Source: a virus
Lineage: Duplodnaviria; Heunggongvirae; Uroviricota; Caudoviricetes
Strand: one strand, 5' to 3'
Length of the DNA stretch: 46,604 nucleotides
Virus record (IMG/VR): IMGVR_UViG_2565956727_000002
Shown: one piece after another, positions 18,914 through 23,072 of the stretch
Layout of the letters: every line of letters begins with the position of its first letter
How positions within the stretch are numbered: position 1 is the first letter of the stretch
The notes under the pieces: generated by a model
Told to the model about the DNA's origin: nothing
Database searches by the model: none
Seen by the model: only the letters and a program-made list of their open reading frames with translations
Program-made: the position numbers and the translations under genes

Positions 18914-19189
18914 TTACTCAATAAAGATCATTGGCTTACCGTTAAAGCGTTCATGCCGTGTGACCGTCCATTGTTGTCCGTCATAAACAACGCGATCACC
19001 GCGCCGTGGGCGGTATCCCGAAGAAAACACCACCAGAGAGACCGCAGGTCCGGACAGAGCATTCAGCTCTGCCAGTGTTTCTCCCGGGATCACAGTCATA
19101 TCGACATCATTAATCGAGGCTGTCTTTCCCATCTTTCTGACCGTGATAGCATCCATACGCGCTGCCAGCCGGGAAAAGGGATCAGACAT
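18914..19189 (-). CDS. head-tail joining protein (FII-like)
   Basis: 91 aa, position between head genes and Z; ...RRGDRVVYDGQQWTV... resembles the FII head-tail connector family. Confidence 0.6.
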   Translation of the reverse strand: MSDPFSRLAARMDAITVRKMGKTASINDVDMTVIPGETLAELNALSGPAVSLVVFSSGYRPRRGDRVVYDGQQWTVTRHERFNGKPMIFIE

Positions 19190-19505: not shown

Positions 19506-19591
19506 AACTGTCTCCGCACAGCCCCGTTCAAGGGCTGATTTCAGGTACAAAAAAAGCCCTTACGGGCCATCAGAGTTGTTGTCTGCGACGT

Positions 19592-21550
19592 TTACGCCGT
19601 ACATTTCACCAGACCGCGGTGATCAACTGGCGCGACACCGGCGTCAATACGCACTTTCGTTGTCACGCCATCCACACTGAAGCCCTCCATCTGATCAATA
19701 TATGGCGTATCCACACCGTTGAGATAAGCCACTTCAATCGTATCGGAGCCTTTTGACGCAGCCAGGTAGAAGGTGGTCTGGCTGTTATCATCAAGACGAG
19801 GCTCTGCAATAACGGTCGCAAAATCTTTCACCGGGTTAATAATACCGGCGTTAATGTCAGCCCCCTTGACACTTGAGGAGCGAATGACCTGGTTAGCAAC
19901 AGACTCCATCGCCGTCGGTACCAGTACGAACGCAGGACGAATATTCAGATGACGCTCCCCCTCTTTCTGAACGCGCATCAACTGGCGGGCTTTATCCAGC
20001 GATGCCACGTCCATTGCAGCGCTCTCCAGTACGTTTGCATGTTTCGCTTTATCGAACAGACTTACATTATCTGTGGAGATTTTCGGGTTAGACGTCAGAA
20101 TGGCATAAACCAGATCGGCAATAGTGGATTTCGCCGCACGGCCCAGTTTCATCGGGACATCGGTCAGCATATTCAGATCATCATTGATAATGGCCTGACG
20201 GGTGATACTGAACAGCTCGCCATAGGTCGCCAGTGCAATAGTGGCCTGTTTATCTCCGGTGGTGACGTATTTATATTCCGCCCCTTCACGCACCTGACGC
20301 AGAGCACTGAAGCCCCCCATACCCACACGATGGGCAATTTTAAAATCAGACAACTGACCTTTCCGCGTCCACTGTTCATAGGTTTCAGGGGCATCTTCCC
20401 AGCCCTGCAGAATGGCTTTGTTCGCAACATCCAGCAGAATATTACCGAAGTCAGACGTACTGTGTGTGAACGCCGCACCGACCATCTGCATCGGGTTATA
20501 ACCGGAAACCCCAATACCCCGTTCAGTTAGTGACATACGGGCATATTCACGCAGGGTCATCCCGTTGTAGACATTATCACGTTCGGTTTTTTCAAATCCG
20601 GCACGCGCCATCAGCGCCTGGCGAATCCCGTCCCCCACAAAATTACCGTTACCGGCATAAATATGAGCCGGGGTATTTTTATTGGATGGCGTGGACTCGC
20701 GCCCCATCTCGTTCAACAGCTTTTCACGGGCCTGCTCCAGCGAACATTCAGGATCGGCAAGACACTGAGCCTGCAGCGTCTGATAACGCCCGCCAAACAT
20801 GGCAAACAGATCACTAATACCGTTTACACGCGCTTTTTGCTCTGCCAGTACCTGCGCACGGATGCTGTTTTCATCCACCACGGGTGCTGCTGCCTGCACT
20901 GGCGTCCGGGAGGCTTCAGATTCATTATCCTGTACGCGTGGAGCACTGTTGCGTGGCGGAGTAATCATGTTTCGAATGGATTCCGGCATCTTTTTAAATT
21001 CCTCTGTACGTTTTGACTGAATACATGCCATTGCCTTAACGGCTGGCGTTACCTGATCAGCAAATCCATGTGCCAGACATTCGGCACCGGACATCCAGGT
21101 CTCATCCGCCAGCATGGCAGCAATTTCATCGGTGGTTTTCCCGGTTTTCTGTGCATAAGCGGGTAACAGAACCGCCTCAACTTTATCGAGCAGGTCGGCA
21201 TAGGTGCGCATGTCCTCCGCATCACCGCCCGTAAAGCCAAATGGTTTATGAATCATCATGAAGGTGTTTTCCGGCATAATGACCGGGTTTCCTACCATCG
21301 CAATGACCGACGCCATTGACGCCGCCACACCGTCGACATAAACGGTAATGGACGCACCATGTGTTTTCAGCGCATTAAAAATGGCGATGCCTTCAAAGAC
21401 ATCGCCACCCGGTGAATTAATATGGAGATTAATGTGGGTGATATCGCCCAGTGCATTCAGATCACTGATAAACTGCTTCGCTGTAACACCCCAGAAACCA
21501 ATCTCGTCATAAATATAAATATCCGCGTCACTCTGGTGACCAGCCTGCAT
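19592..21550 (-). CDS. prohead protease (ClpP/S14-like) fused to major capsid protein (HK97 fold)
   Basis: N-terminal ClpP-like region (…INSPGGDVFEGIAIFNALK…MMIHKP…) followed by a long capsid-like C-terminal domain; start ATG 21550 just inside the portal 3' end. Confidence 0.85.
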   Translation of the reverse strand: MQAGHQSDADIYIYDEIGFWGVTAKQFISDLNALGDITHINLHINSPGGDVFEGIAIFNALKTHGASITVYVDGVAASMASVIAMVGNPVIMPENTFMMIHKPFGFTGGDAEDMRTYADLLDKVEAVLLPAYAQKTGKTTDEIAAMLADETWMSGAECLAHGFADQVTPAVKAMACIQSKRTEEFKKMPESIRNMITPPRNSAPRVQDNESEASRTPVQAAAPVVDENSIRAQVLAEQKARVNGISDLFAMFGGRYQTLQAQCLADPECSLEQAREKLLNEMGRESTPSNKNTPAHIYAGNGNFVGDGIRQALMARAGFEKTERDNVYNGMTLREYARMSLTERGIGVSGYNPMQMVGAAFTHSTSDFGNILLDVANKAILQGWEDAPETYEQWTRKGQLSDFKIAHRVGMGGFSALRQVREGAEYKYVTTGDKQATIALATYGELFSITRQAIINDDLNMLTDVPMKLGRAAKSTIADLVYAILTSNPKISTDNVSLFDKAKHANVLESAAMDVASLDKARQLMRVQKEGERHLNIRPAFVLVPTAMESVANQVIRSSSVKGADINAGIINPVKDFATVIAEPRLDDNSQTTFYLAASKGSDTIEVAYLNGVDTPYIDQMEGFSVDGVTTKVRIDAGVAPVDHRGLVKCTA

Positions 21551-21563
21551 CCTGAACCAGGAA

Positions 21564-23072
21564 TTATTCTTCGGACTGGTCGTCGGTGTGCTGCGGCTCC
21601 TGTCGTTTCGTTGCGGCACTACTGCCTCCTTTATCACTGGCCGGATCGGTATCAAATACCAGATCCAGCTTGCGGTTTTCATCAATTTCGGCCTTGCGCC
21701 GACGTTTGACATCATCCGGATTACGACCACCAGCACGTACCCAGTCTGATTCTGTCGCCGCTCCACCACGAATCTGGATTTTCCAGGCCTCAGCCTCCTT
21801 AACAGGGTCAATCCACGGCATCACTGGTCCGGAATACACCGCGGTATACAGTGAAGAACGGTCAAGATCGCGGGGTAGCCTGATAACACCGGATGCCACA
21901 GCCTGTTTCAGCCATGCACGATACATCGGGCGGGTGACGGCACCAATAAACCAGTCCTGCAGGATCAGGTAGCCATCAGTGGATTCAACCAGCTCCTGAC
22001 GCTGGGCGCTGTAAGTGCCGTTATAGTTGCGCGCTGTACTGGAAAAACTCAGACGACTGCCCGCCGCCACGGCACGCAACTGACCATTACGAAAAGTTTC
22101 AAGGTTAGGATTGGGGCGATCCGACTTCACCATTCCGATTTCTTCGCCGGGTTTCAGATCGTCGTAAATAATGCCCGGCTGAATGGTAAGCTCACGTTCA
22201 TTCTCCTTTCTGCCATTACCATCCGGTTCATAGCTCTGCCCGTCGCCTTTCCGGATGTACATCCCCAGAGCAGCGGCGATCCTTGCTGCAGTCAGCTCAG
22301 AATCTTCATATTCTTTCAGGGCACTGAGGCGGATCAGCACACCGGACAACAAAGACGTCCCGCGCATCTGGTGCAGACGGCGAACAAATTTAAGATGCAG
22401 CATTCGCTCTGCATCCACTTCTTTGGTTTCCATCTGCCGTCCGGATACGGGACGGCTTTTATACACCAGATATTTTTCGGGACGCCCCCAGTCATCAACA
22501 AACACGCCCTGATTCAGCCTGTTGCTCTCATCACTGGTCATGGGAATAAAGTCCGGCTCGAGCGCCTCCAGCCAGAAATGAACACCGGCAGAAGGCGCCA
22601 GGCTGTTTATGCGCCCGGAAACCATCTGGGCAAACACCTCACCATCGCGCAGCCAGGTACGAAGCATCAGACGTTCCAGCATCGGACGGGTAAACTGCCC
22701 GGTGACTTCCGGGCTGACAGACCATTCACTCCATCGGGTGCGAATCTCCGCAGCCAGGTCACGGGCAATGGCCCCATTGCGTAATACCGGATGTGGCTCG
22801 ACAATAATCCCGTTTTTCCCCACCACCCGTTCTTCCAGCTTGTCAAATACACCAATAACCAGATCGTGGTTGTTATCAAGGTAACGGGCCTGCTCACGTA
22901 ACGACACGGCCCCGTACTGGCTTAACTGGTCGGCAGTTCGGTTCTCCCGTCGGGCTTTGTGTGTCCGCGTCGTTTTTACGGCCTCATAAGCCTGGATCAC
23001 CGCACGGGAACGCAGCCTTGCCGCTTTCCATCCTGGTGAAAAAACGCCAATCACATCATCAAGAATTGCCAT
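21564..23072 (-). CDS. B: portal protein (lambda B-like)
   Basis: About 500 aa downstream of TerL; start ATG 23072 overlaps the stop of the upstream small gene (ATGA). Confidence 0.9.
   Translation of the reverse strand: MAILDDVIGVFSPGWKAARLRSRAVIQAYEAVKTTRTHKARRENRTADQLSQYGAVSLREQARYLDNNHDLVIGVFDKLEERVVGKNGIIVEPHPVLRNGAIARDLAAEIRTRWSEWSVSPEVTGQFTRPMLERLMLRTWLRDGEVFAQMVSGRINSLAPSAGVHFWLEALEPDFIPMTSDESNRLNQGVFVDDWGRPEKYLVYKSRPVSGRQMETKEVDAERMLHLKFVRRLHQMRGTSLLSGVLIRLSALKEYEDSELTAARIAAALGMYIRKGDGQSYEPDGNGRKENERELTIQPGIIYDDLKPGEEIGMVKSDRPNPNLETFRNGQLRAVAAGSRLSFSSTARNYNGTYSAQRQELVESTDGYLILQDWFIGAVTRPMYRAWLKQAVASGVIRLPRDLDRSSLYTAVYSGPVMPWIDPVKEAEAWKIQIRGGAATESDWVRAGGRNPDDVKRRRKAEIDENRKLDLVFDTDPASDKGGSSAATKRQEPQHTDDQSEE

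Follow-up and report, generated by a model that had tools for sequence, protein, structure and literature searches.

The closest described counterpart of the gene analyzed here is the "tripartite capsid gene" of the Salmonella phage Gifsy-2 (Effantin et al. 2010, Virology 402:355, as cited in PMC12315714), whose capsid is listed as T=7 (PMC8814770). In phage HK97, the capsid precursor carries its own scaffold, which is removed inside the procapsid by a phage protease, gp4, encoded by a separate gene and belonging to another family; the head genes run in the order portal, protease, capsid, with a terminator after gp5, and the shell is a covalent chainmail that uses no decoration protein. Phage lambda instead has a separate S49 peptidase, C, with the scaffold Nu3 nested in-frame within it, followed by the decoration gene D and then by the capsid gene E. 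The Gifsy-2 gene product reportedly combines a ClpP-like N-terminus, a central domain of ~200 residues with a possible scaffolding role and a C-terminal capsid protein, and Gifsy-2 capsids are said to have been modelled with HK97 gp5 and lambda gpD. Beyond annotation strings, we found no other description of a protease-capsid fusion in the literature.

Here, we analyzed a stretch of 46,604 nt (the window) that, judging from its sequence matches, is an essentially complete lambdoid E. coli prophage of the mEp460/cdtI/Ayreon/Tritos type: its head region is 98-99% identical to phages of this type and the remainder of the window matches the same group. The original prediction for this window was that one polypeptide, encoded at 19592-21550, joins a prohead protease to the major capsid protein, that no separate scaffold, protease or decoration gene lies between portal and capsid, and that the capsid precursor processes itself.

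A single gene encodes a ClpP-like protease and a major capsid protein

The open reading frame lies on the minus strand with its stop end at 19592 and encodes 652 aa if read from ATG 21550; residues are numbered throughout from this ATG. From N- to C-terminus, the polypeptide comprises a ClpP-like serine protease, a poorly conserved linker region that includes three helices and, last, a major capsid domain, laid out as follows.

19592..21619 (-): protease-scaffold-capsid fusion gene, 675 aa and 73.5 kDa from GTG 21619 (preferred reading, see below)
21041..21550 (-): ClpP-like (peptidase S14 fold) prohead protease domain, aa 1-170
21317-21319, 21248-21250 and 21101-21103 (-): catalytic codons for Ser78, His101 and Glu150, respectively
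20873..21040 (-): variable linker, aa 171-226, gap-rich and poorly conserved
20696..20872 (-): three-helix module, aa 227-285, moderately conserved
20651..20695 (-): gap-rich, low-confidence junction, aa 286-300, where pLDDT dips to 52-75
19592..20650 (-): major capsid protein domain, aa 301-652, with the stop codon

HMM-based domain annotation matched protease and capsid profiles on this one polypeptide: Pfam CLP_protease (PF00574) at aa 23-168 (E 4e-36) and Pfam Phage_capsid_4 (PF25209) at aa 354-649 (E 2e-54), the capsid domain also giving a weak Pfam match to Mu gpT (PF10124). PHROG 133 ("head maturation protease") matched the protein from end to end. The NCBIfam model NF045540 (scaf_prot_MCP1, [quoted passage not shown]) scored 985 bits against a cutoff of 475, with aa 9-651 aligned to positions 2-651 of the 652 in the model, showing that the gene is a member of this family. 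With both Pfam domains and this full-length match in hand, a single-polypeptide fusion of protease and capsid protein is established far beyond chance.

A second family of prohead protease/major capsid fusions, NF045541 (scaf_prot_MCP2), matched aa 200-649 (19592-20950 in the window) on model positions 173-630, but its 402 bits are below the cutoff of 525: the linker and the capsid part are shared and the N-terminal protease part is unmatched, so that the gene is not a member. This pattern of matches suggests that the same scaffold-capsid module may have been joined to different proteases. The protease domain itself scored 215.8 bits against a cutoff of 120 for NF045542 ("head maturation protease, ClpP-related"), whereas all NCBIfam/TIGRFAM models of cellular ClpP stayed far under their cutoffs (for example, 59.7 bits against 308.6 for TIGR00493), indicating that it belongs with the phage prohead proteases, sharing the ClpP fold without being a ClpP.

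Structure prediction agreed with this division. An AlphaFold model built from 96 diverse homologues reached a mean pLDDT of 89.2 (a model from 15 sequences of at least 76% identity, with a pLDDT of 34.5, was discarded in its favor). Two domains are modelled with high confidence, a compact alpha/beta domain at aa 1-170 and a large domain at aa 301-652 with a long spine-like helix at 459-487. Between them, aa 201-222 of the linker are predicted to be disordered (pLDDT <50) and three helices (227-250, 257-265 and 271-285) have a pLDDT of 92-97. The protease domain has the ClpP/crotonase fold, and the PDB fold lists were filled by ClpP and crotonase matches; the capsid fold is assigned from PF25209, from weak sequence matches to the solved Mu-gpT-type capsid proteins 8rkx and 8rkc, and from the BFVD library of viral models, in which separate parts of our model matched ClpP-like proteases and major capsid proteins of phages (TMt 0.67-0.81 for the latter). 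Profile and predicted fold alike identify the C-terminal domain as a major capsid protein of the HK97 fold.

Across 129 fusion proteins, column conservation was high in the protease and capsid parts and low, with many gaps, at aa 171-300, which is consistent with a fast-evolving internal scaffold or spacer. By analogy with the HK97 delta domain, the three-helix module is a candidate internal scaffold, and scaffold function is probably supplied by this module together with the linker. Conservation in the junction at aa 286-300 is 0.2-0.29 with 22-37% gaps, and release of the capsid domain by a maturation cut would most likely take place in this region. We also considered, near codon 186, a slippery run of A that would yield a frameshifted protease-only product, and dropped the idea: the sequence there is GAATTTAAAAAGATG, with no run of seven A and no in-frame canonical heptamer.

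An upstream GTG is the more likely start codon

The portal gene lies immediately upstream of the fusion gene, with nothing encoded between the portal end at 21564 and the fusion gene, and its 3' end contains a candidate ribosome-binding site for a start codon other than ATG 21550.

21564..23072 (-): lambda-family portal gene (PF05136, E 9e-82; coordinates mapped from the Ayreon annotation)
21625..21630 (-): perfect Shine-Dalgarno sequence AGGAGG, 5 nt before GTG 21619 and within the 3' end of the portal gene

GTG 21619 is located 69 nt (23 codons) upstream of ATG 21550, which has only "ttcagg" directly abutting it upstream. Large RefSeq/PGAP clusters (P0003, P0005, P0007 and P0008) have a length of 675 aa, and an N-terminal motif common to diverse homologues, approximately (K/N)xW[YF]x[IM](K/Q)A, spans the "M1" of the window (NSWFRMQAG). 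Moreover, the Gifsy-2 protein has an Ile at the position of this M1, and no start codon was found between the portal stop and the protease domain in Gifsy-2. Altogether, these four observations favor the upstream start. The gene therefore more likely runs from 19592 to 21619, with a GTG start, 675 aa and an overlap of 56 nt with the end of the portal gene; of the predicted extent, the stop end at 19592 stands and the start moves upstream. Most phage GenBank records use ATG 21550 (652 aa) and probably begin the gene 23 codons too late. The N-terminal motif (21535-21571 on the minus strand) precedes the ClpP-like domain in many fusions that are only 35-55% identical, and could be an oligomerisation or targeting element.

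Conservation points to a Ser-His-Glu triad in the protease domain

HMMER and BLASTP alignments to an E. coli ClpP sequence in which the triad residues had been verified placed Ser78 (GVAASMA) and His101 (MMIHKP) opposite the nucleophile Ser111 and the general base His136, and Glu150 (LADETWMS) in the column of Asp185. Among 129 diverse fusion homologues, Ser78 is kept in all 129 and His101 in 128, and position 150 is acidic in 122 (Glu in 109, Asp in 13). In the 96-sequence alignment, Ser78 and His101 are invariant, as are Gly48 and Gly49 of the oxyanion-region motif NSPGG. On these alignments, the triad would be best described as Ser-His-Glu, that is, Ser/His/acid, a conservative change from Ser/His/Asp. 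Of the expected catalytic arrangement, the serine and the histidine were recovered, with an acidic Glu where the aspartate was expected; the N-terminal region does not lack a catalytic arrangement, which would have counted against the prediction. The residue before Glu150 is an Asp here and a Lys in Gifsy-2.

The fusion gene is widespread and alternative readings are improbable

At the DNA level, the fusion gene shares 99% identity with phages Ayreon, mEp460 and cdtI. Of 5426 complete E. coli genomes, 2125 (~40%) contain a megablast match to it, which places it among the most common prophage capsid genes of this species, and several complete genomes carry a 100%-identical copy of the 1959-bp frame, annotated as [quoted passage not shown]. 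Among 1.84 billion cluster representatives, 6767 proteins matched at E<=1e-30, and most of the best 150 of these span the full fusion, with lengths of 640-750 aa and identities of 36-60%. These E. coli copies and full-length cluster representatives show that the fusion is an old, widespread architecture. They are also what decides against the view that a frameshift, an assembly error or the decay of a prophage artificially joined two separate genes. Such joining does occur in databases, where some entries are obvious chimeras with terminase, portal or tail domains (P0006, P0033 and P0061), but an intact frame that recurs without change in complete genomes, that is present in the plaque-forming phages Ayreon, mEp460 and Tritos and whose full-length architecture is kept by more than 100 cluster representatives refutes an artefactual origin.

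Two other readings accept the fusion and concern its products or its activity. Since a Glu replaces the canonical Asp of the ClpP triad, the N-terminal domain could be catalytically inactive and serve only as a scaffold or core, with a host protease doing the processing. However, Ser78 and His101 are invariant or nearly so in homologues down to 34% identity, position 150 stays acidic in nearly all sequences and NSPGG is conserved; such conservation of an active site is not expected of an inactive protease domain, and we regard this reading as very improbable. Somewhat less improbable, yet still unlikely, is that internal initiation produces a protease-less scaffold-capsid protein, so that only a minority of subunits carry the protease, as with lambda C and Nu3, where in-frame nesting provides a precedent. 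The candidate start, Met188, is invariant among close relatives and has a GAGGAA ~9 nt upstream, with a moderate anti-Shine-Dalgarno pairing energy of -6.0 kcal/mol. Nevertheless, this Shine-Dalgarno sequence is weak and its spacing long, the linker holds no stronger internal initiation site, the linker region has many gaps and little conservation in the wider family, and we know of no experimental hint of internal initiation.

The head module resembles that of Gifsy-2 and differs from those of HK97 and lambda

The Gifsy-2 protein STM1034.3n is an ortholog of the fusion protein, with 70% identity from end to end (652 aa) and the same order of ClpP-like protease, central region of ~130-200 residues and capsid domain. 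The order of the surrounding genes is also shared: terminase, W-like adaptor, portal, fusion gene, a 107-aa decoration gene, an FII-like gene and tail genes. As here, the Gifsy-2 fusion gene overlaps the 3' end of the portal gene, and the decoration protein in the window is 60% identical to STM1034. The two systems differ in their host, which is E. coli here and not Salmonella, and most of all in the central linker, the most divergent part of the protein. Downstream of the fusion gene, the window contains the following features.

19548..19568 (-): terminator-like hairpin GGCCCGTAAGGGC with TTTTTTT after it, immediately downstream of the capsid stop codon
19182..19505 (-): head decoration (cement) gene of 107 aa, its ATG preceded by GGAGA

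A terminator is annotated at the position equivalent to the hairpin in phage Ayreon, and the hairpin, located between the capsid and decoration genes, may lower expression downstream of the capsid gene. The decoration protein was identified by Pfam Phage_cement_2 (PF09956, E 2e-20) and PHROG 122 ("head decoration", E 5e-47); it has no sequence similarity to lambda gpD by BLASTP (E 0.75), and a PDB sequence search gave nothing significant. Thus, the prediction that no decoration gene lies between portal and capsid was correct, but one is found just downstream of the capsid gene.

With HK97, the locus shares the order portal, protease, capsid and the terminator after the capsid gene, as well as a precursor with an apparently built-in scaffold. 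It differs in that the HK97 protease gp4 is a separate gene of another family and in that a cement protein gene is present here, and no sequence similarity between the fusion protein and HK97 gp4 or gp5 was detected. With lambda, it shares a portal of the lambda family, a W-like adaptor, lambda-like tail genes and a decoration protein that, like gpD, presumably stabilises the shell after its expansion; the decoration gene, however, follows the capsid gene, whereas that of lambda precedes it. The window was searched by tblastn for the lambda proteins (C, Nu3, D and E), for the HK97 proteins (gp4 and gp5) and for the fusion protein split into its three parts; no match to a lambda protein was better than E 0.4, and the only protease, scaffold or capsid gene returned from the whole 46,604 nt was the fusion gene. 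The proposals that no separate scaffold or protease gene lies between portal and capsid and that the layout departs from the C/Nu3/D/E organization of lambda therefore both hold.

Proposed assembly and processing

Very probably, this is a capsid gene of the mEp460/cdtI/Gifsy-2 type, whose product would be a ~73-kDa self-processing precursor of a T=7 procapsid. By analogy with Gifsy-2, HK97 and lambda, several hundred copies of the precursor would assemble together with the portal into a T=7 procapsid, their protease and scaffold parts facing the interior. The protease domains, concentrated there, would then cleave the precursor around the boundary between scaffold and capsid (~aa 286-300) and degrade the parts N-terminal to it. 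Finally, as DNA is packaged, the shell would expand and would be bound and stabilised by the 107-aa decoration protein in the form of trimers. The autoprocessing put forward in the original prediction fits this scheme, and we infer it, together with the T number, from Gifsy-2. What is taken here as the Gifsy-2 cleavage site and as the identity of its virion decoration protein follows papers that cite the 2010 study.

Canonical ClpP needs heptameric rings for its activity. Two points count against the proposed scheme, namely the Glu in place of the ClpP Asp and the presumed tethering of the protease domains to hexamers and pentamers, as opposed to the heptamers that ClpP needs. It is conceivable, but rather doubtful, that the ~415 tethered ClpP-like domains form no canonical heptameric rings and are activated, with a Ser-His-Glu triad, in another oligomeric arrangement that the hexamer/pentamer lattice of the procapsid imposes. 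As a related possibility, a minor internal-initiation product could tune the ratio of protease to capsid protein.

Annotation of the fusion gene and its neighbors

The architecture is already known: NCBI has named the family, phages with near-identical sequences are on record, and the Gifsy-2 ortholog has been studied experimentally. Since it was characterized in that phage in 2010, its occurrence here carries little weight as a discovery, and the practical use of our analysis lies in the corrected start codon, the Ser-His-Glu triad and the mislabelled phage records. In such records, the labels of the fusion gene vary between "protease", "protease/scaffold", "Nu3", "preconnector protease C" and "major head protein"; many use only one of the first four, so that these phages seem to lack a capsid gene. 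Several database proteins that combine it with domains of terminase, portal or tail proteins (P0036 in addition to the three chimeras above) probably result from frameshift or assembly errors.

No tRNA genes were found in the window. Its structural block (~6-26 kb) has a GC content of 52-58%, against 36-48% elsewhere in the window, a mosaic typical of lambdoid prophages. The decoration gene is followed by a gene of 91 aa (18914-19189 on the minus strand) that matched the Pfam family "Gifsy-2" (PF13856), described as "ATP-binding sugar transporter from pro-phage". This protein also gave a weak match to lambda FII-like head-tail attachment proteins and is classed by PHROGs as a minor tail protein, and the wording of the Pfam entry looks misapplied to a head-tail joining protein.
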